In this document: piece after piece, positions 12,675-52,384 of the stretch
How the letters are laid out: every line of letters begins with the position of its first letter
How positions within the stretch are numbered: the stretch's first letter is position 1
Virus record (IMG/VR): IMGVR_UViG_3300013121_000022
Span: 1 to 64,000 of that record
Length of the DNA stretch: 64,000 bases
Origin: a virus
Taxonomy: Duplodnaviria; Caudoviricetes
Strand: one strand, 5' to 3'
Notes under the pieces: generated by a model
Told to the model about the DNA's origin: nothing
The model's database searches: none
The model's input: the letters and a program-made list of their open reading frames with translations, nothing else
Position numbers and translations under genes: made by a program

Positions 12675-14701
12675 TGTACAAACTCGCCACAATCACAGAT
12701 GGTAATAAAACCATACAGGTTCAAATTAATATTTGTAGCACTTGTCGATTTTTTATCGATCCGCCAATGATGCCGCCAAACACTGAACGTCGATGCGCCA
12801 GACCCGCGATTACTCAGGATGGATATATGCATTACATTGCGTATGGCGGATGTCCAGAGTGGCAAGCAGGTGTTCCAATTGGTCATGATTTACCCGAAAA
12901 ACCTATATGGTTAACCATGCTTGAACGAGCGGGACTATCCGATGGTCTTGGTGTACACGGTGTATCAGTCACAATTGACTCGAATCCGTCCAATGGCGAT
13001 CAAGATCACGACTCGCAATATGATTTGCCGAGCGAATATGCACAAGCAAATAAACCAAAAGGTAATCTATTCAAGGCCGTGAAAGATAAACTATTAAAAC
13101 ACGATCATAAAAACGGAGCTCCCCAATCTGTTCACGATCCAACAAAGGGAGTATCAAAATTTAAGATTGGTGAAGATGTAATTCACGCTGTGTATGGCAA
13201 GGCCAATATCGTAAACATTTTTCAGAATGGCCGAGCAATGATTCGCTATACTGCCAGCGATGGAAGCGATGATTACAAAGCGGTAGACGCCAGCGAGCTC
13301 AAGTCTCAATACCAAACACAATACACTAACACGCCTGCTATTCCAAAATTTCCGCCAAAACAAAACAATCTGTTTGGTCATTCGTGGGCGGCGCTAAATC
13401 CCGATCCAAATATGAACAAGCCAAGTAAACGGGACATTCCGGGAAAGAAACCTGACTCGATCACTCAAATCGGAAAGTCAAAAAATGTTTACAAGGTATC
13501 ATTGGAAGGAAAAGACTATATTTACAAGCCCCGCTATGAGGAAGATGACGTTAAGGGAGATCATTACGCCGATTCTAACTTGTGGCAACGCGAAATTGCG
13601 GCTTACGAAATAGATCGAGCACTTGGTTTAGGAATCGTTCCCAAAACAATCAAAGAATCTATTGCCGGAAAAGGGCCGGGTTCGCTTGCCGAAGTTGTCT
13701 CTGGCTTTACACCCGCTCAAACAGGTGACAACACGCTTATCGATAATGGAGAAAGTTTTGCGGTCTTGGATGCACTTACATTACAAAGCGGACGCGAATG
13801 GGGATGGGGTAAAGTTGGCACTCATGGATACGCTACCGGAAATGGTCAGTCGTTTCTGAGAGCTTCACAAGATGAAAAAGGGAGAGGTTCGCCCTTTCAA
13901 AAGAAATACGCCGGACAACCAATTCCCGACGCAATTTTGACTAAGCTCCGATCACTTACCAACGAGCAATTCAACGGATTCATTCCGGCCAGCGTCGATC
14001 CAAACATCAAAGAACAAGCAAACCTGAATTTCACCTACATGCGAGATACCGGACTGATTCCGCCTCCATTATCTGGCAAGTGGTGGTTAGACCCGGGAAA
14101 GAAATTGGATGCATATATCTCAACATTTAAGCAACCATTTGCCGATGCAATGCAAAAACTTAAATCGGTATTACCCAACGCCCAAGTAGACGGAAGACTT
14201 AAAACAGTCGACTCGCTTGTAAGAGATTCAAAACATCTGAAAGTCGATCCACTTAAATTAGGTGATGTTGCTGGTACGCGGGTTATTGTCGAAGACTTTG
14301 ATGCACAAAAAGATGCGGCCAAAAAAATCCGCTCAGCGTTCAATATTACGGTGGATCGATCTCTTGGATTAAAGGGTGCAGGATCACCAACAGAGATCGA
14401 TTACAAGGACAGCGCCGGATACAAAGCTATTCACATGATCGCCAGAGATGGAGATGGAACAAAACCAGTCGAAATTCAAATCAGAACCAAGCGACAAAAT
14501 GTATTGGGCGAATACATGCACGATGTCTTTATGTATCCTGAATTCGAGACGGATAAAGCATTTAATGATTATGTTCAATCAATGGGAGATCATTATTATC
14601 GACTTGATCAAGGATTACAATCGACTTCGCCTAAAGCCCCGCCAATTGCCAAGAAATACCCGAAAGGCGAATTGCCGGACGATCCACTTAATACAAAATG
14701 A
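12674..14701 (+). CDS. tagged cargo: Cys-rich N-term, degenerate HipA/PI3K-like kinase, RelA/SpoT small alarmone synthetase
   Basis: Variant tag KHDHKNGAPQSVHDP at 13097; YKP...REIAAYEIDRALGLGIVPKT; GRLKT..S...DVAGTRVI...GYKAIH...EIQIRT. Confidence 0.8.
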   Translation: MYKLATITDGNKTIQVQINICSTCRFFIDPPMMPPNTERRCARPAITQDGYMHYIAYGGCPEWQAGVPIGHDLPEKPIWLTMLERAGLSDGLGVHGVSVTIDSNPSNGDQDHDSQYDLPSEYAQANKPKGNLFKAVKDKLLKHDHKNGAPQSVHDPTKGVSKFKIGEDVIHAVYGKANIVNIFQNGRAMIRYTASDGSDDYKAVDASELKSQYQTQYTNTPAIPKFPPKQNNLFGHSWAALNPDPNMNKPSKRDIPGKKPDSITQIGKSKNVYKVSLEGKDYIYKPRYEEDDVKGDHYADSNLWQREIAAYEIDRALGLGIVPKTIKESIAGKGPGSLAEVVSGFTPAQTGDNTLIDNGESFAVLDALTLQSGREWGWGKVGTHGYATGNGQSFLRASQDEKGRGSPFQKKYAGQPIPDAILTKLRSLTNEQFNGFIPASVDPNIKEQANLNFTYMRDTGLIPPPLSGKWWLDPGKKLDAYISTFKQPFADAMQKLKSVLPNAQVDGRLKTVDSLVRDSKHLKVDPLKLGDVAGTRVIVEDFDAQKDAAKKIRSAFNITVDRSLGLKGAGSPTEIDYKDSAGYKAIHMIARDGDGTKPVEIQIRTKRQNVLGEYMHDVFMYPEFETDKAFNDYVQSMGDHYYRLDQGLQSTSPKAPPIAKKYPKGELPDDPLNTK

Positions 14702-15381
14702 TGCGATCTAAAGTATTGCTTGCTCTAAATAAACACAATCCCGGAGAACATGATCAACTTACTCACGGCAACCGATCTGCGCCTATGGGACGAAACATAG
14801 AATTCGGACGCGGAGTTGACGAAGAAAAAATATGGCTCAACCCCGAACCATACACAACTAGCGGCGAAGAATCGGATGCGGGATCATGGGGAACAAATCT
14901 TGGGTTTGAACCGCCCACATACTCAAGTAAACAATTGGAGTCTCTGGCGATTTATCAGGGCGCATACTATAGAGGAATAAATGCATCACTTCGCAACAAT
15001 ACGCCAACAACTTACAAGCCATTTATCGATGCGATAGACTCAATGATGCTTGCAACTTCTGAACCAATAACGGTGTACAGAGGATTGTTGCTACAGGATA
15101 AGGCACAGCGCGAAAATTTCAAAAAAGGAAAAAGATTTACGGATAGAGGATATTCGTCAACCAGCATTAACAAAAGAGTCGCTCAAAAGTTTGCTCCGCC
15201 CGAAAATCCACGTAGCTTGACTATGAAAATTCATGTTCCCAAAAAAGCAAAAGCACTGCCAGCGTTCCTTATCAAGAACGTCATGAATGAAGACGAAATT
15301 ATCTTGTCCCGAAACACCACTTACGAAGTCATCAGCGATATTGATGCTGACGGACAATTTGAGGTCAAGGTAGTATCATGA
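14698..15381 (+). CDS. tagged cargo: VIP2/C3-type (R-S-E) ADP-ribosyltransferase
   Basis: Tag KHNPGEHDQLTHG at 14731; YRGINASLR, VYRG, YSSTS, EDEIIL (ExE). Confidence 0.88.
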   Translation: MMRSKVLLALNKHNPGEHDQLTHGNRSAPMGRNIEFGRGVDEEKIWLNPEPYTTSGEESDAGSWGTNLGFEPPTYSSKQLESLAIYQGAYYRGINASLRNNTPTTYKPFIDAIDSMMLATSEPITVYRGLLLQDKAQRENFKKGKRFTDRGYSSTSINKRVAQKFAPPENPRSLTMKIHVPKKAKALPAFLIKNVMNEDEIILSRNTTYEVISDIDADGQFEVKVVS

Positions 15382-16226
15382 TTAACGATAGATTTGTAGT
15401 AAAGGCCGACGATCTGGAATTTGAAACAACCAAACATTTAGGGCCACACAATCACCCGAATGGTACACCCCAATCTGTACATGGCAATCATGGGGATTTG
15501 AAAATAATTGATTCTACAGAGGCCAAAAAACAGGTTGAGAATTTTATGAAAACCGTTCCGGCGGAAACCATGAAAGAAATCAATGCCGTTCGAGATCGAG
15601 TGCGCTTTGGAATGACAACTACTGCAACCCACAGAAATCCAGTCACACGCGAGTGGTATCCAGACCGATCTGCATTACATGAAAAAATAATCGAATCGTT
15701 TTTTGAGGGCAAACAACCAGTCGAAAATCCAGAAATGATTTTTTTGGGAGGTTTACCCGGAAGCGGAAAAACAAGCGCAATGCGCGGACGGATGGATAAT
15801 TACGTAGTTTTAGATGCTGATGAAGTTAAAAAACAATTGCCCGAATATGAGGGTTGGAACGCTCCATTGCTACACGGCGAATCGGCCATTCTCGCTCAAA
15901 TGGTTTTTGATAAAGCTATTCAAGGCGGATATAATATAGTCAATGATGGCACACTGCGAAACAAAGACCTTGCCCTAGATTTATTGACACAGGCAAAACA
16001 AGCAGGCTATTCGACAAAAATTGTATTCGTAGGTGCAACAATCAAAACCGCCCTATCCAGAATGCTTAAGCGATTCAAGGAAACATCGCGCTTTATCGAT
16101 CCGGCATTTTATGTTGCAGTCGCTGGTAATCCAGCGAAAACATTTCACACAATCAAGGACATGGCCGACGCATATGAAGTATGGGACAATAATGGCGACA
16201 AGCCTACACTCATGGAGTCGACATGA
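15378..16226 (+). CDS. tagged cargo: zeta toxin-family P-loop kinase
   Basis: Variant tag KHLGPHNHPNGTPQSVHG at 15432; GGLPGSGKTS, LDADEVKKQLPEY, HGES, NIVNDGT. Confidence 0.88.
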   Translation: MINDRFVVKADDLEFETTKHLGPHNHPNGTPQSVHGNHGDLKIIDSTEAKKQVENFMKTVPAETMKEINAVRDRVRFGMTTTATHRNPVTREWYPDRSALHEKIIESFFEGKQPVENPEMIFLGGLPGSGKTSAMRGRMDNYVVLDADEVKKQLPEYEGWNAPLLHGESAILAQMVFDKAIQGGYNIVNDGTLRNKDLALDLLTQAKQAGYSTKIVFVGATIKTALSRMLKRFKETSRFIDPAFYVAVAGNPAKTFHTIKDMADAYEVWDNNGDKPTLMEST

Positions 16227-16701: not shown

Positions 16702-16950
16702 TTGCAATCGATTTATGATAAATACGCCAGAGTATATTCCGGCAAACTAATTGCGGCAGCTATCAAATCGTGGAAAGAAGGCGACTTTGAATCGGCGGAA
16801 TACAATTTTCAAAAATCACGCGATGGTTTTCAACGCGCCAAAAATCCGACTGAATGGAATGCCCTAGAAGCATGGCGTATTGCGGCTGAAAAGAAAATCG
16901 CAGGACAAACTGGCGAAAACAAAAATGAATCTGAGAACGAACAAGGGTAG
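16702..16950 (+). CDS. hypothetical helical domain; possible frameshift extension of 16223-16609
   Basis: Frame is open back to 16564; only a TTG start without a clear RBS. Confidence 0.5.
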   Translation: MQSIYDKYARVYSGKLIAAAIKSWKEGDFESAEYNFQKSRDGFQRAKNPTEWNALEAWRIAAEKKIAGQTGENKNESENEQG

Positions 16951-18028
16951 TGATCTGCGCCGATCAATTGAATACGTCTTGCAAAAGCACTTACCCGGTA
17001 AACACGATCAAAGCACTCACGGCAGAAGATCGAATGCTTCTGCCGAATCGGATGGGGTTGGCGGAGGCGGATCGCCGCTGGACTTTGAAGATCATGTCAT
17101 TCGCATTGAAACTGGAAGACATATTGAAAAAGTTACTCTTAAAAACGGCGAAACACGCGACAAGGAAATAATTGATTTTGATTATCAGCACAGTGCGGGA
17201 TCGAAATTAGATTCCAAGACCCTGCAACGGATCAAATCAGTCAAAGTTCCGCCCGGTGTGACCAACGTTCAAATTAGTCTCGATCCAAACGCCATGCTTC
17301 AAGCGGTATGGCAAGACAGCAAAGGTCGTGATGTGTATTTGTACTCGAAAGAACACGCTCGACAAGCGGCGGCTGAGAAATTTGAACGACTCAAAGACTT
17401 CAACGATGCTTTGCCGCAAATTCGCAAAACAATCGAATCAACTCTTTACGACAAAAACGCCGATCCCGAAACAAGAGATGTGGCCGCAGTGTTGTACTTA
17501 ATTGATAAGACTGGATTTAGAGTCGGATCGGATACAGATACGAAAGCGGAAAAGCAGGCATATGGCGCGTCAACACTATTAGGAAAACACGTCAAGGTTG
17601 ATGGGGACTCGGTTATATTTGACTTTGTGGGTAAAAAAGGCGTTGACATTCACAAACGCATTACCGATCCGATTATTGCCGACATTATTTCAACACGCAA
17701 AACAAAGAACTGGAGTCAAAAACTATTTCAGGTGTCCGATGATCAAGTTAGGACATTTCTAAAGCAGTTTGGTGATTTCAAGGTAAAAGATTTCAGAACA
17801 TGGAACGGAACAAACAAAGCACTTGAAGAACTCGCCAAAGTCAAGCGTAAGCCAAAGTCAGAATCTGAATTCAAAAAAGTCCAGCGAAAGATTGCGGACG
17901 CAGTAGCCAAGCACTTGGGAAACACTGCGTCAGTTTGTTTATCGGCCTATATCGATCCGTCGATTTGGGGAAGAATTCGCAAAGAAGAATGGGGCGCATA
18001 TGTCCCGCCAAGTCTCAAGGGCGACTAA
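16925..18028 (+). CDS. tagged cargo: type IB DNA topoisomerase
   Basis: Tag KHLPGKHDQSTHG at 16985; QAVWQDSKGR..YLY, GFRVG, FVGKKG, KDFRTW, LGNTASVCLSAYIDP (catalytic R,K,R,N,Y); start uncertain. Confidence 0.92.
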   Translation: MNLRTNKGSDLRRSIEYVLQKHLPGKHDQSTHGRRSNASAESDGVGGGGSPLDFEDHVIRIETGRHIEKVTLKNGETRDKEIIDFDYQHSAGSKLDSKTLQRIKSVKVPPGVTNVQISLDPNAMLQAVWQDSKGRDVYLYSKEHARQAAAEKFERLKDFNDALPQIRKTIESTLYDKNADPETRDVAAVLYLIDKTGFRVGSDTDTKAEKQAYGASTLLGKHVKVDGDSVIFDFVGKKGVDIHKRITDPIIADIISTRKTKNWSQKLFQVSDDQVRTFLKQFGDFKVKDFRTWNGTNKALEELAKVKRKPKSESEFKKVQRKIADAVAKHLGNTASVCLSAYIDPSIWGRIRKEEWGAYVPPSLKGD

Positions 18029-18032: not shown

Positions 18033-18230
18033 ATGCCTCAAAGCGAAGATCAATTACACGAGATATATGATAGGGCATGGAGTCGTACAATGAAAAAAAG
18101 CATCCTCAAACAAGAAGTTGAAAAGTCAATCAAAGATCAAACTTTGATGGATGACTACTTAGAAACAACCATATACGATGAACCCGCAACGTGGAATGAT
18201 AAAAATTCTGGAGATGATCCTGACGAATGA
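18033..18230 (+). CDS. small hypothetical protein
   Basis: Fills the gap; ATGA overlap with the next gene. Confidence 0.55.
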   Translation: MPQSEDQLHEIYDRAWSRTMKKSILKQEVEKSIKDQTLMDDYLETTIYDEPATWNDKNSGDDPDE

Positions 18231-19303
18231 AAATCAGAGATCGGATTCAAACTTTAATCAAACATCTTCCGGGAACACACAATCAACTCGATCATGGCCG
18301 ACGAAAAAACCAACCCGCTGTCCCCGAAACGTCAAATGTTGATTCGGATAATCAGTCGACTCAAGCCCCCACTCGCGCAAGGACAAACAGAAATCCAACA
18401 CTGGCTCAGGGTGTAACAGAAGAACAAGTCGAACAAAAAATAAAAGAGTGGTACATGAATTTTATGATGGAGGGAAATGAGGCGATTGGCGCACCCCAAG
18501 ACTGGTATGATCGCATGAATGAAATTAATGACGCAGAAAATTCAGATGATCCTGACTACGATCAAATCGAATCGGATCGAGATGAATTATATTCCGAAGC
18601 ATACGATCACTTGATGAAGGCGGCGGCTGACAAGATGTTTGAATTAGTAAATGACCCCGATACTGATTTAAGAATTCGCATCTCTCCAAACAAGCTTCAA
18701 CAATTAGTTGAAGATGGAAAATACAAGACCCTGCACGATGTTGTTGCAGAGCTTGATCCCGACGAAGAAATACCTAGCGATATAAATGGCGGCTGGAAAG
18801 ACAACGGACTTCGGCGCACTGCCGAAGATGGTATGTTGGGAGAAGATTCTGAACCAGTTTATGGATACATTTATCATCCCGAACTTGGTAATTACATGGT
18901 TGATTCAAGTCATACTATTAAAGATAGTCTTGATTCGTATGGTACATTAGATTTGATTCTTAAAGAAGATGTTCGTCAACGATCTACCTTTACAGTTGGC
19001 GATTCTTTGGCAATCAATGCTGATGACAACCTAGAATTTGATCCTAGACTTATTCCGTCTCGACTAGATAATCCGAGCGGACTATCTTTTCCGTTCAAAA
19101 TAGACGACAAACATCAAACCCTTGATCCCGATGTTTTATTTCAAGCAAACAGCGTTGCAGAGTTACAGACATACGTTGAAGCACAGATATTAGGTGGAGT
19201 GAAGCTATCCGATATAAAATCAGTCCTTGTGCGCGATGACAATATATCTAATGAACTAACTCAGCAGCTAATCGATGCTGGTATTGAAGTGGAGTATGAA
19301 TGA
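18227..19303 (+). CDS. tagged cargo: DUF3626-like putative ADP-ribosyltransferase
   Basis: Tag KHLPGTHNQLDHG at 18260; L..LV.DG.YK...R..AE...PVYG...YG...LK..V..R.TFT.GDS...YVEAQI.GGV.L.DI. Confidence 0.7.
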   Translation: MKIRDRIQTLIKHLPGTHNQLDHGRRKNQPAVPETSNVDSDNQSTQAPTRARTNRNPTLAQGVTEEQVEQKIKEWYMNFMMEGNEAIGAPQDWYDRMNEINDAENSDDPDYDQIESDRDELYSEAYDHLMKAAADKMFELVNDPDTDLRIRISPNKLQQLVEDGKYKTLHDVVAELDPDEEIPSDINGGWKDNGLRRTAEDGMLGEDSEPVYGYIYHPELGNYMVDSSHTIKDSLDSYGTLDLILKEDVRQRSTFTVGDSLAINADDNLEFDPRLIPSRLDNPSGLSFPFKIDDKHQTLDPDVLFQANSVAELQTYVEAQILGGVKLSDIKSVLVRDDNISNELTQQLIDAGIEVEYE

Positions 19304-20409
19304 AAAAATTAATAGCAACAGCAGGCGACAGAAAATTATATGCACTCGGCAGACGTATGGGAGTTGTTGAAAGCAACGGCAAGACATCTCCGCCTCAGTT
19401 TATTCCATCCATACTACGATCTGATGACTGGACTATGATTCCTGATAAAGTTGAAAAGGCCGGAAACTCCGAATCGGTACGACGCGGCTGGTTGAAGCGT
19501 AAGGCGCTTGAATCGGCCAATCATCTCAGGAGTTTTCAGACTGGATTAGCCGGAATTCCAGATCGGTTCACTCGTGCCGCTTTGCGCCAAAAGCAACAGC
19601 AACACGCTAAAGTAATTTCAGATGTATCAAGAGAGCTATCCAACATGCAACACAAAAAACTACGAGACATTGTAACGGGCAACGTTCAAAAACATTTGCA
19701 AGGCCGACACGATCAAAAGGATCATGGCCGCAAGCAATTTAGCTTTGCCAGTGAAGTGCAATCAGTAATAAATTCTTTGCCAGTTCTGGATACAACTTTT
19801 CGAGACAGCAGAACCAGCGATGCTTATGTACAATGGAAAAAAGATATAGTCAATGCATCCATGAATGGTCGGTTGCCTGAATTAGCGGAAGCATGGTCAC
19901 AGGGTTGGTCAAACACAATTCGCGAAAAGTTGACTCCATCTACAGTTAAGACATTGGACGCACTTACCAATGATCAAAACAGTCGATCTAACACCATCGT
20001 TCCCGAATCTCAACTCTCAGATATTTTGAGCGAGATTACTACCGATGGCTATTATGAAGGAATGAACTCTGTTCGACTAGATCGTCCTGAACTTATTAGC
20101 GAGTTTTTGACTCCGGCAAATCAAGCAATGAGGGCTATTGATTCGTTTTTGACTTCACTTGGACACCCCGCTGGTGTATTGAACGGACTACAACTAGATG
20201 ATTTTAGAGGAATAGACAAAATACATCGTGGTGTATATGACTCTGCGGGATATGATCGAAACAAAGTCGAGTCGGCGGTTGTGTTTGACGACATTAATTT
20301 TTCGGATTTATCAGCCTCTATTGGCAATTATTTAATGATGTACTACCGAGACAATCCAGAAGACATTCCGGCCAATTTCCGAAACTCGATTGTGATTGCA
20401 GGCGATTAA
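19300..20409 (+). CDS. tagged cargo protein, unknown function (two tags)
   Basis: KAGNSESVRRGW at 19456 and KHLQGRHDQKDHG at 19690. Confidence 0.75.
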   Translation: MKKLIATAGDRKLYALGRRMGVVESNGKTSPPQFIPSILRSDDWTMIPDKVEKAGNSESVRRGWLKRKALESANHLRSFQTGLAGIPDRFTRAALRQKQQQHAKVISDVSRELSNMQHKKLRDIVTGNVQKHLQGRHDQKDHGRKQFSFASEVQSVINSLPVLDTTFRDSRTSDAYVQWKKDIVNASMNGRLPELAEAWSQGWSNTIREKLTPSTVKTLDALTNDQNSRSNTIVPESQLSDILSEITTDGYYEGMNSVRLDRPELISEFLTPANQAMRAIDSFLTSLGHPAGVLNGLQLDDFRGIDKIHRGVYDSAGYDRNKVESAVVFDDINFSDLSASIGNYLMMYYRDNPEDIPANFRNSIVIAGD

Positions 20410-20410
20410 T

Positions 20411-21550
20411 ATGTTGCGTGACATTGTGGTTGATGTTTTGGAAAAAGGCGGCAAGGGTTCGGGTTTTTTTGCTCCCCGTCATCAAGGCCGCATTGGTCAG
20501 ATTGGCGGATCAACATCAGAAAATGTTGCCGCTCAGTCGTCGGGACGAAGAATTTATACTGAACTTCTGACAATCGACAATGACAAACTCAACGATCCAA
20601 AGGAAGTTGCCAGAGCTAATCGCTGGACTAAAAAACATATCAACATACTATTGAGGTCGGGCAAACAGAATGTCACAGTCAAAAAGATTAATGGAAACAA
20701 TAAAACCATTTTTACGATTGAATATGACATGCCAGTTGTTCAGGTTGATCCTAAACCGGATGAGTCGGTGTCCGAGAACGTTGATTTATACACTCCGGTT
20801 TCAGTCAAGAAAAAAATAACCGTACCGTCAACTGCCAAAACTGAGGCAGGCAAAAAAATATATACCAACGCACGAGAAATTATCGATGCTATTGATTCGA
20901 TTCATAAAATGCCAAGCAATGCCCCTGTCGTAAACGTACATGTTTATGGTTTGAGATCGGGATTTGGTGAATACCGATATGGGACAGATGTTTCTACAAT
21001 TCGTGTATCTTCTAAGAGAACAGAGAATAATGAAGCAGAAGAAACTATCACACACGAAATGGGACACTGGCTAGATCATGCGTTAGGAAAAAGATTTACC
21101 AAATACAAGCAATCTCTTTTTACCGATGTTGCCTATAAGCCGGACTCTAATGCCGATCCAGCGATAAAAGACGCAATAGATGATTGGGTAAATGCCGTTA
21201 TGAATTCTCAGGCGGTAAACGAACTCGCTCAAACCAAACACAAAAAAACCTTAACAAAATTGATTCGCACTAAAAACGCCGATGGATCGTTGACGGTGGA
21301 AAGTAAGAGCATCAATGTTGACAGGAAAATCGTTAGATATTTCTTAAGCACCGCTGAATTGTTTGCCCGATCCTATTCTCAGTATATTGGAACTAAAACC
21401 GGACGAAAGGGAATTATGGATGCAATCAATAAAGTGAAACAAGGAAGCGATCAAACTTTTTATCCTCAACACTGGACTGACGATGATTTCAAGCCCATAT
21501 ACCATGCTATGGAAAACATTCTCAAAACAGCAGGACTACTAAATGAATAA
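20411..21550 (+). CDS. tagged cargo: zincin (HEMGH) / LPD1-like domain
   Basis: Start refined to ATG 20411; alternative tag KGGKGSGFFAPRHQGRIGQIGGS at 20444; HEMGHWLD; YFLSTAELFARSYSQY. Confidence 0.75.
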   Translation: MLRDIVVDVLEKGGKGSGFFAPRHQGRIGQIGGSTSENVAAQSSGRRIYTELLTIDNDKLNDPKEVARANRWTKKHINILLRSGKQNVTVKKINGNNKTIFTIEYDMPVVQVDPKPDESVSENVDLYTPVSVKKKITVPSTAKTEAGKKIYTNAREIIDAIDSIHKMPSNAPVVNVHVYGLRSGFGEYRYGTDVSTIRVSSKRTENNEAEETITHEMGHWLDHALGKRFTKYKQSLFTDVAYKPDSNADPAIKDAIDDWVNAVMNSQAVNELAQTKHKKTLTKLIRTKNADGSLTVESKSINVDRKIVRYFLSTAELFARSYSQYIGTKTGRKGIMDAINKVKQGSDQTFYPQHWTDDDFKPIYHAMENILKTAGLLNE

Positions 21551-22289
21551 CGACATAATTAATGATCGGGTTGTCAAAATAGTTGATGGACGCGAAATCG
21601 AAACCGATTCACCGTCCATCGAAGATGTTTATCGGTCTTTGCGATCTCACGGAAAACTTCGCAACAAAGTTGCCGCAGTCATAAAACATTTGTCAGGCAA
21701 ACACGATCAATCAAGTCACGGAAATCGAAACGGCAGTAACATTGTCACAAAAAAAATTGGCAATGCAACCATATCTTTGAATCAGGGCGATCTCACTAAA
21801 GTTCCGGTAGACGCCATTGTAAATGCCGCCAACGATCATTTACAACACGGTGGTGGACTTGCTCGTGCCATTGTAGTACGTGGCGGAGATTCGATTCAAG
21901 ACGAAAGCGATCAATGGATTCAAGAAAACGGCAACCCATCTTCAACTCGTCCGGCAATCACATCAGCGGGATCGTTGCCAGCAAAAATGATCATCCATGC
22001 TGTTGCGCCTAGATGGAACGAAAAACAAGAACCACAGATGTACGAACAACTCAAGTCGGCTTACAGATCGGCGCTAGATGTCGCACATCAAAAAAACCTA
22101 AAATCAATTTCGTTTCCATCATTGGGAACTGGAATATTTGGAGTTCCAATTTCAGTCGGAGCAAAAGCCTCAAGAGAGGCAGTAGAAGATTTTGTTCGTG
22201 ACAATCCAGATTCTTCGTTGAAAGATATTCGCTTTACAATCTTTGACGACAAAACTGTGTCGGTTTTTGAAAGTGAGTATTCTAAATAA
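21543..22289 (+). CDS. tagged cargo: macrodomain (MacroD/YmdB-like ADP-ribosylhydrolase)
   Basis: Tag KHLSGKHDQSSHG at 21684; GDLT...DAIVNAAN..L.HGGG.A.AI...IIHAV.P...SISFPSLGTGIFG. Confidence 0.92.
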   Translation: MNNDIINDRVVKIVDGREIETDSPSIEDVYRSLRSHGKLRNKVAAVIKHLSGKHDQSSHGNRNGSNIVTKKIGNATISLNQGDLTKVPVDAIVNAANDHLQHGGGLARAIVVRGGDSIQDESDQWIQENGNPSSTRPAITSAGSLPAKMIIHAVAPRWNEKQEPQMYEQLKSAYRSALDVAHQKNLKSISFPSLGTGIFGVPISVGAKASREAVEDFVRDNPDSSLKDIRFTIFDDKTVSVFESEYSK

Positions 22290-22291: not shown

Positions 22292-23989
22292 ATGACTAAA
22301 CCAACTCTTGACAATAATATGTTGTCGTACTATGATTACATCGCTAATCATGGTAATTCTGCATTACGTAGAAAGGTTGGTAAACATTACATGGGACAAC
22401 ACGATCAAAAAAAGCATGGCCGAAAAACAACTCATCTGTTGGATTTTCCGGTAAACGCCAATCTCAGGGCTATTGCTGATAAATTTGACGCGGCTGGATT
22501 TAAGATTTACGTAGCAGGCGGAGCGGTACGAGATTATATTGTCGGTAAGACTCCCAAAGACTTTGACCTAACAACCGATGCTACTCCCACTGAAACCAAG
22601 TTTCTATTTGGTACAAAACAAATCAAGCCAGACTTGGGCGGAGAGTCGCATGGTACAGTTCGCATTCAAGAGGGGCATGAGATTTTTGAAATCACCACAC
22701 ATCGCACAGACGTTGAAACGGACGGGCGTCATGCAGTCGTGGCGTTTTCGCGATCCTTGACTGACGACTTGGCACGTCGCGATCTAACCTGTAACGCAAT
22801 GGCCTTAGACCTGAAAGATAAAAGGCTGTACGGTACATCTCCAGACGGATCGGCAGAAGACAATATCTCCGACATTGAAGATGGAGTCGTTCGATTTGTC
22901 GGCAATGGATCGGATCGGATTCGCGAAGACGCTTTACGTGGCTTACGAGCTATTCGCTTTGCAATCAAACTGAACGCAAAGTTGCATCCTGATACAAAGG
23001 CGGCGATCACTCAGGCAGTTGACAACGGATTAATTCCCGGCAATTTATCCGCTGAACGAATCCGAGATGAAATGATTCGCACTTTTGGCATGGAACATGG
23101 CGCAAACGCTATCCGATGGTACAAGGAAACCGGATTGCTGTTCGCTATCTTTCCTGAATTGAAGGCGTCTGAAAATCAATCGCAAAACAAACATCACGGT
23201 GATGTCAAGGTATTGGAGCACATCTTTCGCACTACTGAAACAGTCGATGTTCCGAAAACGGACTTGAAGTTGTTTAACGGTATGGCAACATTGTTGTTTG
23301 GACACAGGGACGAAAGCGAAGTAACAGAATCTGAGCGTATTGATACTGCCAGAGGAATTTTGCGCTTGACTATGCTGATGCATGACATTGCCAAACCACA
23401 AACAGCGGCAGAAAAACCCAACGCACCGGGTGAATACTCGTTTTTGACGCATGAAATCAAAGGAGCAGAAATTGCAAATGCCATTGCCAGACGTTTACGA
23501 ATTCCAAACACATTCGTTGACTTGATTACAATGGGTGTAGCCGAGCACATGGCAGTTCCTCATCCCGATGCATCCGATAGTTCAATCCGCCGATGGGCAA
23601 GACGACTGTATGACGAAAACAAGGGATTAGCCGAAAGCGGAATGAATTTGGTTGATTGGATGATGGCAGTACGGGCAGCTGATTGGGGATCGTTAGGACG
23701 TGAGCACAGCATTCAAGATATGGGCTTTGACAAAATCCGCTCAGTATTAACCGCAGTTCCAGTAACAACTAAACCGCCAGTTAGGGGTGAACGTATCATG
23801 TCGCTGACGGGATTGAGTCCTAAAACAAATGGTAAAATGATCGGACAAATTGTAAGACACATCGGTGAATTTTTGGATACCATGCCAGATGCACCCGATC
23901 ATGTTATCGATCAAGAGATTATGTCCGCGTTTCATTCTCTAACCGATAACAAGCCATTAGGAAAACAAGTCAAAGATGCACTCCAATAA
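22292..23989 (+). CDS. tagged cargo: CCA-adding enzyme / poly(A) polymerase family nucleotidyltransferase with HD domain
   Basis: Tag KHYMGQHDQKKHG at 22382; GGAVRD...KDFDLTT, EITTHR, DLARRDLTCNAMA, EDALRGLRAIRF, HDIAKP. Confidence 0.92.
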   Translation: MTKPTLDNNMLSYYDYIANHGNSALRRKVGKHYMGQHDQKKHGRKTTHLLDFPVNANLRAIADKFDAAGFKIYVAGGAVRDYIVGKTPKDFDLTTDATPTETKFLFGTKQIKPDLGGESHGTVRIQEGHEIFEITTHRTDVETDGRHAVVAFSRSLTDDLARRDLTCNAMALDLKDKRLYGTSPDGSAEDNISDIEDGVVRFVGNGSDRIREDALRGLRAIRFAIKLNAKLHPDTKAAITQAVDNGLIPGNLSAERIRDEMIRTFGMEHGANAIRWYKETGLLFAIFPELKASENQSQNKHHGDVKVLEHIFRTTETVDVPKTDLKLFNGMATLLFGHRDESEVTESERIDTARGILRLTMLMHDIAKPQTAAEKPNAPGEYSFLTHEIKGAEIANAIARRLRIPNTFVDLITMGVAEHMAVPHPDASDSSIRRWARRLYDENKGLAESGMNLVDWMMAVRAADWGSLGREHSIQDMGFDKIRSVLTAVPVTTKPPVRGERIMSLTGLSPKTNGKMIGQIVRHIGEFLDTMPDAPDHVIDQEIMSAFHSLTDNKPLGKQVKDALQ

Positions 23990-25031: not shown

Positions 25032-26147
25032 ATGACTGTTGTTGTTTCGATTATGGGATCAACGGCTACGCTCAGTAATTACGTTTGGACATCAACGGAC
25101 AAATTGGTAGCCAACACACTGAATGCTTATGTGCCAGTTGGCGGATTCGCAACGCATATTCCCGATCCAGATTACGAACTCGCACAGGCTATGATAACAA
25201 AATTTGGTGGAAAGATTATTTCCAACACTCCCCCCGTTTGGATACCAGACTATCACCCACGAACTAGCCTGCTTGACAAAGTGCTGAAACATCTTCCGGG
25301 ACAGCACAACCAACTGGATCATGGTAGAAAACAGAACTCGACTGATTTGCGATCTGACGAATCGGCAGAGTGGATGTTAGAGTATCACGACTCAGCGACC
25401 CCAATATCAGAAATGTCGATGAATAGCGTGTACATTCTTGAGTTCGCTAATGGCCGCAAGTCAATCGGAAAAACAATACAGCCAAACAGACAATACGGAA
25501 TAGACGCTGACCATGTAAGACAAGAAGCAATCAATGAAGTAACAGTGGCGTCACTTGCAAAAATACTGAATGTCAACGTTCCTCCAACGGTAGCAGTCAA
25601 AGATTCGGGATCAAGCTACACTATTAAGCAGGAGTTTGTCGATGGAAAAAATGGCGGCGAACTCTATTCGCTGAAAAAGGTGTATCAACGACTTCAAGAA
25701 CATCCCGATCATTTATTCCGAGCGGCGATACTGGACTTCATTACCGGACAAACAGATCGGCACGTTGGCAATGTAATGTTTACTAAAACCAGCTTTGCGT
25801 TAGTGGATAATGGCAACACCACACAACCTAGTAACATGACCAACCTAAAACTATGCGTTGGTCAAGCTAGTACAGAAGATCGATCTTTGATGGTGTCAGC
25901 ATACAACAAAATCTTTGATGCTAATTCTGCTCCAACTAAAGAACAATTCAATATTTTGAACTCTGTAATCAAGGCAAAGCAGTTTCCAAAACCAATTCGA
26001 GCACGAGCGGAATTCCTTAAGCGTCTTTGGACAGAAACTAACAGCACACAGATTCCGCCAATGACCAAAGAATCAGACTGGATCAATACCGAATCCAAAC
26101 TATGGAATTCGGTGGTCGCTCAGTACAATAATGAGGACGACAAATGA
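25032..26147 (+). CDS. tagged cargo: HipA/PI3-PI4-kinase-like protein
   Basis: Tag KHLPGQHNQLDHG at 25287; EV..A.LA..L...VPPT, DFITGQTDRHVGNVM, LVDNG. Confidence 0.82.
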   Translation: MTVVVSIMGSTATLSNYVWTSTDKLVANTLNAYVPVGGFATHIPDPDYELAQAMITKFGGKIISNTPPVWIPDYHPRTSLLDKVLKHLPGQHNQLDHGRKQNSTDLRSDESAEWMLEYHDSATPISEMSMNSVYILEFANGRKSIGKTIQPNRQYGIDADHVRQEAINEVTVASLAKILNVNVPPTVAVKDSGSSYTIKQEFVDGKNGGELYSLKKVYQRLQEHPDHLFRAAILDFITGQTDRHVGNVMFTKTSFALVDNGNTTQPSNMTNLKLCVGQASTEDRSLMVSAYNKIFDANSAPTKEQFNILNSVIKAKQFPKPIRARAEFLKRLWTETNSTQIPPMTKESDWINTESKLWNSVVAQYNNEDDK

Positions 26148-26776
26148 TTAACATTGTTAGCAATCAATCGATCATAGCCACTTACGACAACGATATGGGC
26201 TGGTCGGGAAATCCGAATCAGGTTCAGGTTCTAATAGAAACATTTGGTAAGCAAACCGAAGATCAATATCTTCGGACGATATGTGGATCGTACTTGTTTG
26301 CCCAAAAATCAAAACAAACACTAATGCAGACGATCAAGCACCTAATCGGTCAGCACGACCAAAAAACACACGGTGGACTCAAAGGGACTTTGCTTAGTAT
26401 TCGTGAAAACATTGTCCAGAAGGCTCAGGAAGTCTTGGACGACTGGAAACCGAACGAAGATGGCTTTGACGAGTTATTCGGCTCAGGCGGGGCGTGTGAC
26501 GAGATTGCAAGGGTAATGAGTGACGTTATCACGGAACAAATACCAGACGCCGAGATATTTGATGGTGGTCAGGACGGTGATGATCACGCCTTTATCTATG
26601 TCAAACAAAACAATAAGGCTTTTGCGGTTGATATTCCGCCGGGCGTCTATGAAACAGGTGGGGGATACAATTGGAAAAAGAAAGAGGGAGTCAAGCTCGA
26701 ACCGGACGATGTAGTTATATATGAAATTGACGCCTCTGTACTTGAATCGGAATTTGACGATCACGATTACGATTGA
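26144..26776 (+). CDS. tagged cargo: possible papain/transglutaminase-fold enzyme
   Basis: Tag KHLIGQHDQKTHG at 26336; GGAC.EIA...DHAF...VDI suggests a Cys-His-Asp triad. Confidence 0.55.
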   Translation: MINIVSNQSIIATYDNDMGWSGNPNQVQVLIETFGKQTEDQYLRTICGSYLFAQKSKQTLMQTIKHLIGQHDQKTHGGLKGTLLSIRENIVQKAQEVLDDWKPNEDGFDELFGSGGACDEIARVMSDVITEQIPDAEIFDGGQDGDDHAFIYVKQNNKAFAVDIPPGVYETGGGYNWKKKEGVKLEPDDVVIYEIDASVLESEFDDHDYD

Positions 26777-27475: not shown

Positions 27476-28235
27476 ATTAGACAACGTTGCAACCAAAATG
27501 CCGCGTTGCCCAAAATGCAACAAGCGCATGAAAGATAAACACGGTGGGGGTTATAAGTGTCCCGCGTGTAAGCACGAAGTTGAGGCCGAAGAATCAGTCG
27601 AAAAAAGTTTTGTGCCTGATACCTTTCCCCAAATAGAATCTGTGTCAAAAAAAAAGCTAAGTAAGCAGGTTGCCGAAAAACTTGAAAAACACCCGGGACA
27701 TCCCGATCAATCTGTTCATGGGAGTTGGGCAAGAAACGCTGATACTCGCGGAAACATACTAGAGCGTAAGGGAAAAATTTCAGGTAAAGGACGCAAGACC
27801 GTCGAAGTAGGCGCAAGCGCACAGTTCAAAGCAAAAAAACTCAAGATGCGTCCGAGCACCTTGAAACAGATTCAAAATGGATGGAAAAGCAGGCTTGACG
27901 ATGTAGCTTTTTCGCGAGAAGACCTACAGGGACAGACACCCTATATTCCCGTAGCCGAATCCAGATTTCCCAAAGGATCGGTTGGAGCAAAAATCAATCA
28001 ATTGATTGGTAATCAAGTTGGTCGGGCGGATGCTTATTATCGACACGCCATGACCCTGAATCCACTGACGCATAACACTGAACGACAGTCGTTATTGTAT
28101 CGCGCTGAAAAATTTTTGGAATTCTCAAACAAAGTCTTAGGGCCAGCACTACAACGAGAACTCAAGAAGCTTGATCCTGTAGTAGTCACTAAGCAAAAAA
28201 TTCTTTCCACTTTACGGGGATACTCACATGCTTAA
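27441..28235 (+). CDS. tagged protein with N-terminal zinc ribbon
   Basis: CPKC...CPAC; variant tag KHPGHPDQSVHG at 27687. Confidence 0.7.
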   Translation: MTQSLKRQLLSKLDNVATKMPRCPKCNKRMKDKHGGGYKCPACKHEVEAEESVEKSFVPDTFPQIESVSKKKLSKQVAEKLEKHPGHPDQSVHGSWARNADTRGNILERKGKISGKGRKTVEVGASAQFKAKKLKMRPSTLKQIQNGWKSRLDDVAFSREDLQGQTPYIPVAESRFPKGSVGAKINQLIGNQVGRADAYYRHAMTLNPLTHNTERQSLLYRAEKFLEFSNKVLGPALQRELKKLDPVVVTKQKILSTLRGYSHA

Positions 28236-29016
28236 TAACCTATCTCAAAAACAGCGCCAAAAACTCGAACAGATAGACTCGGTACAAAAGCATTCCTTTC
28301 CGTTCGATCATCCAGACGACCTACATAGAATTTTAGAACAGTCAGTCGAATACGCCGAAACACCCATGCCCGAATCCACTGTGGAATTATGGGATCAACT
28401 TGACGACTGGATTGATGGACTTGTCGATCAAGAGTCGGACGAAGATCGCAGCTTTGAAGAAGTTGACGAACTGGATAAAGGCGATAGTCCCGGACATCCA
28501 TTTAGAGGAAATCAATACGTTGACGGTGAAGGTGGCTCGTCGCTATCTGAGGAAGAAAAAGCCAGCATTAAACAACACATAGCCGATCACGGATTCCCAA
28601 GCAAAAAAACCTTGATTCATGATTTGGACGCATATCGCGAACGGGCAATTCGTCGCAAGCAAGAATTAGATGACATCACGGAAAAGTTGAACAACGAAAC
28701 AAACAAGAAAAAACTTATGTTGTTGAGAGGCGCACACACCACTGCTACCAAAGATTATGAAAGTGCTATTAATTTAGTCGAACGAACAAAATATAAACTC
28801 GAACTGGCAGAAAACGATCCAGATACGCTAAATGCAAGTCAGCAATACAAACAGGCATTGGATGACTTTTCGAGAGCGGCGGAGAAATGGCAGGCCGCAA
28901 AGACTGATTTCCGATCACGCAAAATTGGTGACGCTGAATATTTCAAAGCCAGAGACGAATTTAAGTTGGCCGAACAAGCAATGAATCAAGCGGAGAAAAA
29001 AGAACAGAATCGATGA
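28228..29016 (+). CDS. tagged helical cargo protein
   Basis: Alternative tag KGDSPGHPFRGNQY at 28477; coiled-coil C-terminus. Confidence 0.7.
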   Translation: MLNNLSQKQRQKLEQIDSVQKHSFPFDHPDDLHRILEQSVEYAETPMPESTVELWDQLDDWIDGLVDQESDEDRSFEEVDELDKGDSPGHPFRGNQYVDGEGGSSLSEEEKASIKQHIADHGFPSKKTLIHDLDAYRERAIRRKQELDDITEKLNNETNKKKLMLLRGAHTTATKDYESAINLVERTKYKLELAENDPDTLNASQQYKQALDDFSRAAEKWQAAKTDFRSRKIGDAEYFKARDEFKLAEQAMNQAEKKEQNR

Positions 29017-42188: not shown

Positions 42189-42930
42189 ATGCATCTTAGA
42201 AAAAGCGTTCAGCGCATCGTCAAACACTATGGCCCGGGCGACCATAAATCTGGCTCGCCTCAATTGGTTCATAACCCGCATCATTCGAGTGAATCGGACG
42301 ACATTGTTTCTACAGGCGAATCGGTTGGGTATCCAGATATACACGTATCATTCAAAAAGTCCAATCCAAGCGAATTCAAAAAAGCCATACAGTCAACTGA
42401 AAATCGCAGCTCATTTTTAGGTGGATACTCGGAAGACGACTATAAAAAGATGTCGGTGTATCTATCAACTGATGGAAAGACGGGATTTGCAATCAAGCCT
42501 GATGGCGATCTTGTCTCAGTGTTCAACAATGGCGGAGTGAAGGGAGCTGGAAAAGTTGCAATCAAAACTGCTTTGAAGCAGGGCGCAAAAAAACTCGACT
42601 GCTTTGATGGATTTCTACCTAATTTCTATGCCAGCTTTGGTTTCAAAGAAAGTGAGCGCATGAAATGGGACGACCAGTACGCTCCAAAAGATTGGGACTA
42701 TAAGAACTATAACAGACGTTGTTTTTATGGTTGTTGGAGATGAACAAGTGAACAAACAATTGAACAATAAACTAAAACTAAAAATTGAATCAAGATACGG
42801 AAAAGGGTATCTCGATAAATACAGAAAAATGTTCCTAGATCAATTGAATTACATCGAATCTCTTGGTGTTCCAGATAAAATGACTGAACAAGAACTAAAA
42901 GAACTAAGAGAATTCCTTGAAAGCGAATAA
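42189..42930 (+). CDS. tagged GNAT-like cargo gene, apparently frameshifted near 42715 (ORFs 42189-42743 and 42727-42930)
   Basis: Variant tag KHYGPGDHKSGSPQLVH at 42222; GFAI..DGDLVSVF...G.G...A...G..KLDCFD..L..FY..FGF; expected DVVFM continues in another frame. Confidence 0.65.
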
Positions 42931-48010: not shown

Positions 48011-48012
48011 AT

Positions 48013-48921: not shown

Positions 48922-48954
48922 TTGCTCACCAACAAAGGATAAGGTAACTATACA

Positions 48955-49932: not shown

Positions 49933-49958
49933 CCATTAATACCTGATACTACAAGCCG

Positions 49959-49996: not shown

Positions 49997-50032
49997 CCCC
50001 GTATAAAGAGCGCCAGATAAACGAGATTTATC

Positions 50033-51121
50033 ATGCCCATTCGCCAGCGTATTAGATCGATCCTTGTCAAACATTTAGCTGGACAACACGATCAATTAAC
50101 TCATGACCCAACTCCCGATTGGGATGCTCAGGATTCCAAGTTTGAATACGAAGTGGTTTCACACACCAGTGCAGTCAATAAAGACTTGCTAGATTGGCGC
50201 GATCAAATTGGTAAAGTAATGAGCAAATTTAATCAGCGGTATGACTTTGAAAGATTTTTTGGATTCCGTCCAAATCGAGACGACCTTGATCAACTGGATG
50301 AATCGGCCACTATTCAGTACAACGCAGTGACTTTTCTATTAAATCGATCCGGTGGATCGTTGCAAGACGACTTTCAAACAGAAAAAACCATTGTTGAGTC
50401 TCGGCTACAGCAAGCACAAGATGCGTTAGACAACGCAACTTTCAAGACTGATGAATATCGCAAGATTTGGAAAAAAGCAGATCAAGAATATGAAGATTAT
50501 GATGGGGACGATGAATACACCATTAATGTACTCAGTCGTCGAGTGAGCGATGCCAAGTATAATTTTGAAGAATATGAAGACTACCAAAAAAGCTACGAGA
50601 ACGATCTTGAGGAAGTGCAGAATGAACTCGACAACCTTGAAACATCTTGGGAGGATGGTACATATGCAAAGGATCATGACAGCGCCTACAATGAAGCTGT
50701 GGCATCAACTTATCGAGATTCGAGTGGTATACTACAAGCGTTTGCAGTATTTTCTGGAAAACCCGAACCCAATGGCGAGTGGTATATGGAATTTATGTCT
50801 GTAGCTCCCTGGAACAATCCTAATGCCAGTCGCATTCGAGACGAGGAAACAGGTAAGCGAGTAAACATTGATCGTCAAATCGAAAATCTTTTTGGTCACA
50901 AAAAAGACGCAACTGCTTCATTGAAATTGGCTTTGAAAATATGCAAAGATGCGGTAAAATCAAATTCAACTCTCAGGTTTCAGCCAGCCACAGATCAAGT
51001 TCAAAAGCTGTATGAATTCGTGGGCGCAAAAGTTGTCGGGCGTGAGGAAAACATGCCAGTGATGACATGGGACGTTAATTCTATGAAGAAATTCATAGAG
51101 AACTACAAAGGGAATTCCTAA
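50033..51121 (+). CDS. tagged cargo: acidic coiled coil plus GNAT-like domain
   Basis: Tag KHLAGQHDQLTHD at 50069; RDSSGILQAF...YMEFMSVAPWN...LYE..G resembles the last domain of 29013-33290. Confidence 0.7.
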   Translation: MPIRQRIRSILVKHLAGQHDQLTHDPTPDWDAQDSKFEYEVVSHTSAVNKDLLDWRDQIGKVMSKFNQRYDFERFFGFRPNRDDLDQLDESATIQYNAVTFLLNRSGGSLQDDFQTEKTIVESRLQQAQDALDNATFKTDEYRKIWKKADQEYEDYDGDDEYTINVLSRRVSDAKYNFEEYEDYQKSYENDLEEVQNELDNLETSWEDGTYAKDHDSAYNEAVASTYRDSSGILQAFAVFSGKPEPNGEWYMEFMSVAPWNNPNASRIRDEETGKRVNIDRQIENLFGHKKDATASLKLALKICKDAVKSNSTLRFQPATDQVQKLYEFVGAKVVGREENMPVMTWDVNSMKKFIENYKGNS

Positions 51122-51747
51122 TGAAAAAACCAGATGATTTAGAATGGGACTTTACAGTTGTCAAGCCCAAGAAAAAAACAAATCTTAAAAAAGCAGTCGC
51201 TCAAGCACTTGAAGTCAACAAGCATTTGCCGGGACAGCACGATCAATCAAGTCATGCTGGTAATCGAGCTAAAGCAAAAATGTTTGATCGGACGCAGTTT
51301 TCAAACCATGATGAAAATTCTTTTAAGCAAGTAGCCAAAAAAAACCAAGAGAAGTTTGCCAAACTTTCATCAGTAGAAAAAGGCAGTCTCATTAGACAGT
51401 GGGCGAATAACAACCCGCATCAATTGTTCAAAACGTTAGCTGCTTTTTTGGATAACAACAATCAGTCCACTCTATCGGGAATCGTGGATAAAATGGCGAG
51501 TCATTATCCCGACATACATGATACAGTTGGAAACACCGCAAACGGCATGTTTCATATCGCCGGACGTGACGCCTTAGAACTGGATACATACCACAGAACA
51601 CTCGATCCTGACGTTGAGCGAGAGGGTATTGTACAACTCATAAGCCGAACAGGAAGCAACCCAAGCGATGTGTTTAGATCGGCATTTGGTCAAGCACAAC
51701 TCACCGTTCAGGATCGAAATTGGCTTGATAAAAAGTTGTCATGGTAA
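51121..51747 (+). CDS. tagged cargo protein, unknown function
   Basis: Tag KHLPGQHDQSSHAG at 51220. Confidence 0.75.
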   Translation: MKKPDDLEWDFTVVKPKKKTNLKKAVAQALEVNKHLPGQHDQSSHAGNRAKAKMFDRTQFSNHDENSFKQVAKKNQEKFAKLSSVEKGSLIRQWANNNPHQLFKTLAAFLDNNNQSTLSGIVDKMASHYPDIHDTVGNTANGMFHIAGRDALELDTYHRTLDPDVEREGIVQLISRTGSNPSDVFRSAFGQAQLTVQDRNWLDKKLSW

Positions 51748-51853
51748 AACAAAGTCACAACTCAAGAAACAAGTCGAAGAAATTTTACAAAAAGCAGGAA
51801 CGTCAGCCGGAGTAAAAGACTTGGATCAAGAATCCAAGTATCAGGAGTATTAG
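51741..51853 (+). pseudogene. decayed tagged-gene remnant
   Basis: SQLKKQVEEILQK-AGTSAGVK is out of frame with ATG 51741; closely resembles the leader of the next gene. Confidence 0.45.
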
Positions 51854-51856
51854 ATT

Positions 51857-52384
51857 ATGGGAAAACATACACCCGAATTTGAAAGGTGTGTAGAATCGGT
51901 CATGGAGTCTGGCAAAGACAAGTCCAGCGCATTCGCTATTTGTACCGCTTCTTTCAAAAAGGCAGGGAAACCAATTTTGAAATCACCACTCAAAAAGCAA
52001 GTTGAAGAAGTTTTGCAGAAACACCCAGGACACCCCGATCAAAAAGTACATGGTCATAAAGGTCGCGGTACATCTCAGAACGAATCGGCAAGTGCAACCA
52101 AACCATCGTCTAATAGCCCCAAGATCATTGAGTGGGAAAAATCGAAAGCAACAATCTCCAAACGAAATGATGGTGGTCACGACGTTGAATACAAGGGCCT
52201 GAAGGTTGAAATCAAACCTCATTCATTGGGCGGATTCATGGCGCACTTTAGACCCCCGCCAATTGGCGGCAAAAAATCGAATGAAATAACTTCAATGAGA
52301 CTCAACGGGCAAGACAATTTATTGCAATGGGCAAAAAGCACTCTTATTGAGTTCAGTCGAAACAATTTGTACGATAAAGACTAA
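51857..52384 (+). CDS. tagged protein with N-terminal RCV...AFAIC module
   Basis: FERCVESV...SAFAICTAS; variant tag KHPGHPDQKVHG at 52019. Confidence 0.75.
   Translation: MGKHTPEFERCVESVMESGKDKSSAFAICTASFKKAGKPILKSPLKKQVEEVLQKHPGHPDQKVHGHKGRGTSQNESASATKPSSNSPKIIEWEKSKATISKRNDGGHDVEYKGLKVEIKPHSLGGFMAHFRPPPIGGKKSNEITSMRLNGQDNLLQWAKSTLIEFSRNNLYDKD

Follow-up and report, generated by a model that had tools for sequence, protein, structure and literature searches.

A short His-rich peptide, preceded by a lineage-specific residue, as a candidate protease-exposed header of cargo modules in uncultured phages

The stretch of DNA analysed here (the window) covers the opening 64 kb of an uncultured phage genome that is complete at 172.5 kb and has direct terminal repeats (IMG/VR record IMGVR_UViG_3300013121_000022). 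It encodes 23 copies, 20 canonical and 3 degenerate, of a short His-rich peptide with the consensus K-H-L-P-G-x-H-D-Q-x-x-H-G, which we call the tag. The residue directly ahead of the first His is Lys in every copy; in other phages it is replaced in concert by other residues, and it matches both the clade of the prohead protease and the predicted maturation junction of the capsid protein. These regularities, like the tags themselves and the periodicity of the leader peptides ahead of them, are read directly from the DNA. From them we lean, with a little more confidence than doubt, towards a mechanism in which the prohead protease cuts at hydrophobic-x-K|His and so frees tagged modules, the same enzyme trimming the capsid protein, itself and the scaffold after Lys.

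In this mechanism the His-rich peptide would be a header standing before every module carried in the phage head, and the residue ahead of its first His would be P1, the position just upstream of the cut, of a site for the phage's own prohead protease, an XkdF-type enzyme of the S78_2 family. This enzyme would also cut after K19 of the capsid protein, after K21 in its own sequence, and at hydrophobic-x-K|S sites of the scaffold. Cutting would remove short leaders and split two polyproteins of 1425 and 855 amino acids (aa) into modules that start with the His peptide. We infer the cut itself, its place at K|H, the packaging of the modules and a role for the His peptide that they retain; that role might lie in loading, anchoring or ejection, and metal binding by its three His and one Asp is possible.

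A six-frame regular-expression scan placed all 23 tags on the + strand, within long open reading frames (ORFs) between 9.4 and 52.4 kb, interleaved with the genes for terminase, portal, protease, scaffold and capsid; no tag turned up in the other 120 kb, which was scanned in the same way. The first His codons of the degenerate copies lie at 9414, 15435 and 42225. The initial annotation had described the Lys before the tag as invariant, and it is present in 23/23 copies. The residue before it (P2) and the variable positions within the tag differ freely from copy to copy.

How constant the residue before the His is in other phages was determined in two collections. A degenerate DNA pattern for the strict motif found 51 IMG/VR loci, and among the additional tags in these loci, which had not been selected for Lys, Lys preceded the His in 51/51. 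A profile of the window's 18 best tag copies, searched against 1.84 billion representative proteins, matched 773 of them at E ≤ 0.001, with up to 10 tags per protein; the figures on architecture given below cover the best 150 of the 773, with 468 tags. Lys stood at every tag in 137 of these 150 proteins. The other 13 were nearly pure for another residue, among them four proteins with Phe throughout (one having a single Leu among ten tags), two with Phe and Leu mixed or Leu alone, one with Glu at every tag and Leu, Phe or Val at P3, and two with Ala throughout. Across the 139 multi-tag proteins, the 52 non-Lys residues were confined to 12 proteins, and Lys was mixed with another residue in 3/139, against 43 expected by shuffling (minimum 35 in 2000 shuffles).

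Scans of IMG/VR for Glu-His and Phe-His tags yielded 16 and 37 loci, respectively. The extra tags in these loci carried the same residue class throughout, and none had Lys. The uniformity extends across separate genes of a genome: contig L062 has seven tags over two genes, all preceded by Glu; L122 has five over four genes, all preceded by Ala; and L123 has four over two genes, all preceded by Leu. The choices made by different lineages are K (most phages), E, F/L/Y/M and A. Because P2 and the variable tag positions differ freely, this uniformity is kept by selection and is no relic of recent duplication. Judged by these comparisons, the residue before the His behaves as the P1 specificity residue of a protease.

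We then typed the proteases of 51 loci with Lys before the tag (K loci) and 37 with Phe (F loci) by a local phmmer search of all loci. The XkdF-type protease found in the window was present in 15 of the 51 K loci and in 1 of the 37 F loci; conversely, an S78-related protease of the type on the F-lineage contig L064 was present in 18 of the 37 F loci and 0 of the 51 K loci. The association of P1 with protease clade gave p = 8.6e-9 by Fisher's exact test, a value that ignores phylogeny. On a few K contigs the protease is instead an HK97-type S78 enzyme. A restriction of the tag to XkdF-type proteases was rejected: five large tag-bearing contigs lack a PF14550 match, and two have S78 matches. Contigs with Glu before the tag (E lineage) matched neither S77 nor S78, so that a T4-like enzyme could not be shown there, and the protease part of their head proteins had no Pfam or PDB relative.

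That P1 follows the protease clade bears on whether the head protease is needed at all. A self-cleaving or metal-assisted tag, whose His, Asp and Gln residues would hydrolyse the bond before their own first His, could draw on the invariant His at P1', on the His/Asp cluster and on the known chemistry of metal-assisted hydrolysis next to His. Its P1, however, would have no need to follow either the protease clade or the capsid junction, and we hold this explanation to be very improbable.

In three lineages the same class of residue stands before the cargo tag and at the predicted maturation junction of the capsid protein. In the window the K19-S20 site of the capsid is present, as are the K21-G site of the protease and the K-S sites of the scaffold, all as the initial annotation had claimed. 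K19 forms an invariant column among 25 homologues of 33-89% identity and is Lys in 22/22 close relatives; XkdG-type capsids on other K-lineage contigs have hydrophobic-x-K at the same place. The E lineage contributes three protease-scaffold-capsid fusions in which E and then S/A come directly before the start of the conserved capsid domain, the junctions reading L-x-E in L062 and L080 and A-L-E in L070. Eight F-lineage capsids, aligned where the delta domain ends, have V-F, V-L, A-I or A-L ahead of the conserved start of the mature protein. A sub-threshold TIGR01554 profile match places K19 roughly at HK97 residue ~105, which suggests a positional equivalence to HK97 Lys103. An experimental mature N-terminus was sought for the homologous XkdG-type capsids of PhiCh1 (gpE), phiH (HP32) and ChaoS9, but none of the open papers and records names the residue; PhiCh1 protein E has been reported to be processed. 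PDB sequence searches with the protease and the capsid N-terminus were uninformative.

The protease offers a second view of such a boundary. Its N-terminal helix ends at K21 (47096-47098), which is followed by G22 and a stretch resembling the capsid N-arm. A relative with 77% capsid identity (L056) retains both the helix and the Lys. In a second relative (L058, 70%) an in-frame stop lies three codons ahead of the protease ORF, which opens with M-G-L-T-T-T-N-L at the position just downstream of K21; the leader is therefore separable, with a boundary at K|G. The assignment of Lys as P1 of the head protease, made in the initial annotation, draws support by comparison from this start, from the uniform P1 of each lineage, from the protease clade and from the capsid junction. 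As a separate observation, the capsid N-arm motif x-L-x-T-S-N-L-x-x-G-G-x-L-N-x-A-Q is copied in the protease (47036-47170 versus 48955-49070) and relatives keep the copy; in L061 a similar N-arm stretch opens a separate 119-aa ORF. The protease may be incorporated into the procapsid by means of this copy.

The scaffold contains 6 K-S dipeptides where 1.8 would be expected, and in 5/6 of them P3 is hydrophobic or aromatic. The two C-terminal K|S sites, just before a conserved G-V-W-x-x-S-P-F-D tail, are kept in relatives. A hydrophobic-x-K consensus is common to the tags, the capsid, the protease and the scaffold. In relative L060 (77% identical capsid) a scaffold homologue at 2-1162 has a tag variant, K-H-G-D-H-N-Q-K-R-H-G, before the scaffold domain; this homologue also has an extra ChaB-like N-terminal part. 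The scaffold opens with a conserved D-V-x-F-V-S-x-V-x-x-P-A-T-G-x-x-F, shared with L056, L058 and L061, after a 2-nucleotide spacer behind the protease stop codon (48008-48130), and in other phages protease and scaffold are one protein (phrog_3017). The conserved start could reflect strand pairing with the protease domain or be a relic of a former ORF fusion. A prediction of the complex between the protease domain and a leader-tag scored 0.01 against a mark of 0.32, which counts neither for nor against binding.

What happens to the tag after a cut was judged from its place in the best 150 proteins. At least 76 residues follow every one of the 468 tags, the median spacing between tags is 249 residues, and first tags often lie 5-25 residues from the N-terminus. 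Since every tag has at least 76 residues after it, the peptide heads modules and never ends one. The proposal of the initial annotation that the His peptide is retained on the downstream module fits this architecture.

Removal of the whole tag, with the leader, by a cut further downstream is the converse possibility. In a propeptide of the T4 style the Lys would be just part of a binding motif; T4 capsid-targeting sequences are indeed short N-terminal peptides that are removed after loading, and behind many tags lies a Gly/Ser-rich linker that a protease could reach. The sequence downstream of the tag, however, is of several unrelated types with no conserved residue pair, and only the residue before the first His varies in a concerted manner and follows both the protease clade and the capsid junction. 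We consider this variant quite unlikely.

Alternatively, there might be no cutting, the tag serving as a docking or metal-coordinating element and the residue ahead of it co-evolving with a lineage-specific receptor such as the scaffold, the capsid interior, the portal or DNA. In sequence, His, Asp and His are spaced much as in a small metal site, the tag is constant across protease clades, and in encapsulins a short uncut peptide binds an HK97-fold shell. A single tag, though, would suffice to load a whole polyprotein, yet each module has its own; one header per polyprotein module makes sense if the modules get separated. A match of P1 to the capsid maturation junction in three lineages would be unexpected for a pure docking motif, and K|G is shown to be a real boundary by the protease of L058, which starts without a leader. 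Docking without cutting therefore seems to us unlikely.

The leaders ahead of the Lys were next compared within and beyond this phage. A short amphipathic helix precedes about 14-16 of the 23 tags, with hydrophobic residues at -2, -6 and -9/-10 relative to the Lys. Taken over every K-anchored 11-mer in the genome, the helical hydrophobic moment is 0.90, whereas the leaders reach 1.38 (Mann-Whitney p = 2e-5); P3 is hydrophobic in 17/23 leaders versus 27% of background sites, and the pattern given in the initial annotation fits 9/23 leaders versus 19/2366 background sites. The amphipathic leader described there is thus beyond chance, but it is not general even here: the helix is missing in six or seven tags (the zeta-toxin ORF, ORF 23976 and polyprotein copies 1, 3, 4 and 5). 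The ten leader strings quoted in support of it are all in the sequence, and the one in ORF 20396-21550 precedes a Gly/Arg-rich peptide, not the His tag. In the 150 representative proteins, leaders can be as short as 3-5 residues, the minimum being three residues plus Lys; in other phages no conservation extends upstream of P3, which is hydrophobic in 68% and mostly Val. Five paralogues of a 327-kb phage (L048) do have 15-residue helical leaders before K-H.

A bipartite signal, in which the amphipathic helix would bind the scaffold and be cut off at the Lys while the His peptide acted as a second, retained signal, would account for the high helical moment with its i, i+4, i+7/8 hydrophobic pattern, for the leaders of the five L048 paralogues, and for the capsid and protease N-termini, which are likewise a helix and then Lys. 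As a general scheme it is not supported: this phage has tags with no helix, leaders elsewhere can be tiny, with conservation ending at P3, and nothing was found linking leaders to the scaffold. We regard it as highly unlikely. Because leaders can be so short and nothing is conserved upstream of P3, the helix is not part of the general signal; on these comparisons the amphipathic leader is a local elaboration of this phage and a few others. Under cutting by the head protease, it would here mainly supply the upstream residues of the cut, hydrophobic at P3, P7 and P10.

Several points weigh against cutting by the head protease at K|His. The capsid junction sites are predictions; the P1 of the F-lineage junctions is only broadly hydrophobic; and the invariance of K19 could be structural, in the N-arm. 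P1, protease clade and capsid type could be inherited together by lineage, since kinship was not corrected for. Leaders of 3-5 residues leave a protease little upstream sequence to hold. We found no tag-bearing cultured phage with virion proteomics. In relatives L058 and L061, with 65-70% identical capsids, other short peptides replace the His tag. Finally, changes of P1 and of protease clade leave the tag unaltered. A tag that is the same across protease clades and P1 types cannot be explained by the S1 pocket, so that something other than this pocket probably reads it, and the occurrence of other peptides after similar leaders in L058 and L061 points to a reader that is fast-evolving or self-contained. 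It is conceivable, though doubtful, that the His peptide is a cargo header shared across phages with several protease clades, its P1 tuned in each phage, and that, once exposed at the N-terminus, it forms a metal- or DNA-binding handle that holds the module in the head and leads it out through the tail at infection. In that case one portable tag with a matched P1 residue could bring any protein into the heads of many phages.

The peptides that replace the tag also follow K-ended leaders. They are rich in Pro, Gly, Arg and His, with types such as Y-P-A-P-H-K-G-R-x-G-x-R-G-G-S and N-x-x-Q-P-R-x-P-x-G, and lie at 20396-20500 of the window and at 3306-4223, 5629-6144, 12601-13242 and 14772-15545 of L058. 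Both header types, a Q-P-R-D-P-K-G-R-W motif as well as a His tag, are found in one E-lineage cargo protein (L062, 5960-7270). There seem to be several cargo headers that are interchangeable.

The tag itself is covered by none of the Pfam, PHROG and NCBIfam models, and exact-string and keyword searches of the literature found no description of the peptide. The head regions of the cultured Streptomyces phage Coruscant, Myxococcus phage Mx1 and Tunturiibacter phage Tunturi_5 are without tags. The sole match of an F-lineage polyprotein among cultured phages is Micromonospora phage pMLP1.

The positions of the tags and head genes are collected in Table 1. The S78-family protease gene adjoins those of the scaffold and capsid. 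The protease matches PF14550 (Peptidase_S78_2; E = 9e-28, 97 bits) as well as phrog_3017, and the capsid matches phrog_1623 (E = 2e-88) and is ~40% identical to capsids of Streptomyces BK-cluster phages. Its homologues carry PF05065 and are named as HK97 family, and its own TIGR01554 match is weak. About 20 effector-like enzyme genes surround the head genes in the window; they include an exoenzyme-type ADP-ribosyltransferase, a zeta-toxin-like kinase, a topoisomerase IB, a Macro domain, a CCA/poly(A) polymerase with an HD domain, an ART-PolyVal with weak LPD1 matches and a Tpt1/KptA-like module. The last two belong to the 1425-aa ORF (ART-PolyVal, weak LPD1) and the 855-aa ORF (Tpt1-like), which combine disparate effector modules among the virion genes. 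Phage_Mu_F had no match anywhere in the complete genome, and a dependence of the tag on MuF was rejected on that account. A 675-aa RelA/SpoT-domain protein (12674-14701), whose start codon overlaps the stop codon of the tagged 1112-aa ORF (9336-12674), is itself untagged. A motif A-I/T-G-N-x-G-x-F-x-P-D-x-P-x-I ends modules directly before some tags of the 1425-aa polyprotein (29880-29945, 30880-30930) and recurs in an unrelated viral contig, IMG/VR locus L032, near 2620-2680.

Table 1. Tags, leaders and head genes of the window, in order of position
Feature	Position	Strand	Remarks
Leader + degenerate tag	9378..9449	+	Near N-terminus of 1112-aa ORF 9336-12674
Leader helix + K + tag	14698..14769	+	ADP-ribosyltransferase (exoenzyme type) ORF 14698-15381
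Degenerate tag, no helix	15399..15470	+	Zeta-toxin-like kinase ORF 15378-16226
Leader helix + K + tag	16952..17023	+	Topoisomerase IB ORF 16880-18028
12-residue leader helix + K + tag	18227..18298	+	Extreme N-terminus of ORF 18227-19303
Internal leader-like helix + K + tag	19657..19728	+	Residue ~131 of ORF 19300-20409
Leader helix ending in K, then Gly/Arg-rich peptide, no His tag	20411..20500	+	ORF 20396-21550, minor-head/DNA-pilot-like
Leader helix + K + tag	21651..21722	+	Macro-domain ORF 21543-22289
Leader + K + tag	22349..22420	+	CCA/poly(A) polymerase-HD ORF 22292-23989
K + tag, no clear helix	23979..24050	+	ORF 23976-25031
Leader + K + tag	25254..25325	+	Residue ~86 of ORF 25032-26147
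Leader + K + tag	26303..26374	+	Residue ~68 of ORF 26144-26776
Leader helix + K + short tag variant K-H-P-G-H-P-D-Q-x-V-H-G	27654..27725	+	ORF 27423-28235
1425-aa polyprotein, five internal K + tags	29013..33290	+	H codons 29946, 30957, 31800, 32166, 32670
855-aa two-module protein, two K + tags	33262..35829	+	H codons 33355, 34687; second module Tpt1/KptA-like
Large terminase	35829-37313		
Portal	37323-39062		
12-residue leader helix + K + degenerate tag	42189..42260	+	N-terminus of ORF 42189-42743
Prohead protease, XkdF type	47036-48010	+	Peptidase_S78_2 at aa 209-319
Scaffolding protein	48013-48921	+	Six K-S sites: K39, K117, K180, K239, K273, K285
Major capsid protein, XkdG/HK97 type	48955-49932	+	Predicted cut after K19 (49009-49011)
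13-residue leader helix + K + tag	50036..50107	+	N-terminus of ORF 50033-51121
Leader helix + K + tag	51187..51258	+	Residue ~48 of ORF 51121-51747
Leader helix + K + short tag variant	51986..52057	+	ORF 51857-52384, ChaB-like N-terminus

To our knowledge, T4-like and phiKZ-like phages are the only tailed phages in which the selection of proteins for packing into the head and injection is understood in molecular detail. One short peptide here marks hundreds of putative cargo modules in uncultured phages. What is new is a P1 that changes in concert by lineage and matches the protease clade and the capsid junction, comparative evidence pointing to both the place of the cut and the enzyme that would make it. 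Cargo loading into phage heads thereby becomes directly and inexpensively testable with one protease, one peptide and a P1 swap. If the mechanism is true, sequence could reveal injected anti-defence arsenals, cargo tags could disclose the specificity of the uncharacterised prohead protease that goes with them, and a portable tag would serve to load foreign proteins into phage capsids.

The enzymes of the window recall the polyvalent proteins, whose domains include ART-PolyVal, LPD1, zeta kinase, RelA/SpoT and Macro and which are encoded among head genes and predicted to be injected; their processing has been proposed to involve zincin-like metallopeptidase domains, in a text that does not mention the peptide (Iyer et al. 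2017, PMC5512222). The domain repertoire matches, but most modules here are separate genes, each with its own header, and no metallopeptidase family was matched among the ~35 window proteins scanned with Pfam. The Dar system of phage P1 (DarA, DarB, Hdf, DdrA, DdrB, Ulx) is alike in that anti-defence proteins are packaged in the head and some are proteolytically processed; it differs in that no shared sequence tag has been described and loading is hierarchical, via DarA and Hdf. With the encapsulins the tag would share the use of a short conserved peptide to send unrelated enzymes into an HK97-fold shell, as predicted here from sequence, whereas encapsulin cargo peptides mostly sit at the C-terminus and bind directly to the shell protein, with no link to cleavage.

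The HK97 protease, an S78 enzyme, cuts its capsid at Lys103-Ser104. The analogy with HK97 is apt because the protease here is of the S78_2/XkdF type; both systems have an S78-family protease and an HK97-type capsid, and the cut predicted here likewise follows a Lys, with Ser-Leu at the start of the N-arm. Here, however, there is no delta domain, the capsid leader has 19 residues and the scaffold is separate, and HK97 is without a known set of tagged cargo.

The capsid-targeting sequences of T4 (IPI-III, Alt; gp21) and the propeptides of phiKZ and SPN3US (gp175/gp245) resemble the tag in being a short signal shared by diverse injected proteins, much as 23 tagged and otherwise unrelated modules among the head genes share one here. 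As in T4, one head protease would act on one consensus in cargo and head proteins, and an ADP-ribosyltransferase is among the cargo in both. The T4 protease gp21 is an S77 enzyme that cuts head and internal proteins after L/I-x-E, whereas the enzyme in the window is a Peptidase_S78_2 with a predicted P1 of Lys. Unlike in T4, phiKZ and HK97, the conserved element here is downstream of the predicted cut, so that the cargo would keep it, and it recurs within polyproteins, up to ten times. A further difference from T4 is that the same tag is found in phages of different protease clades, each with its own P1.

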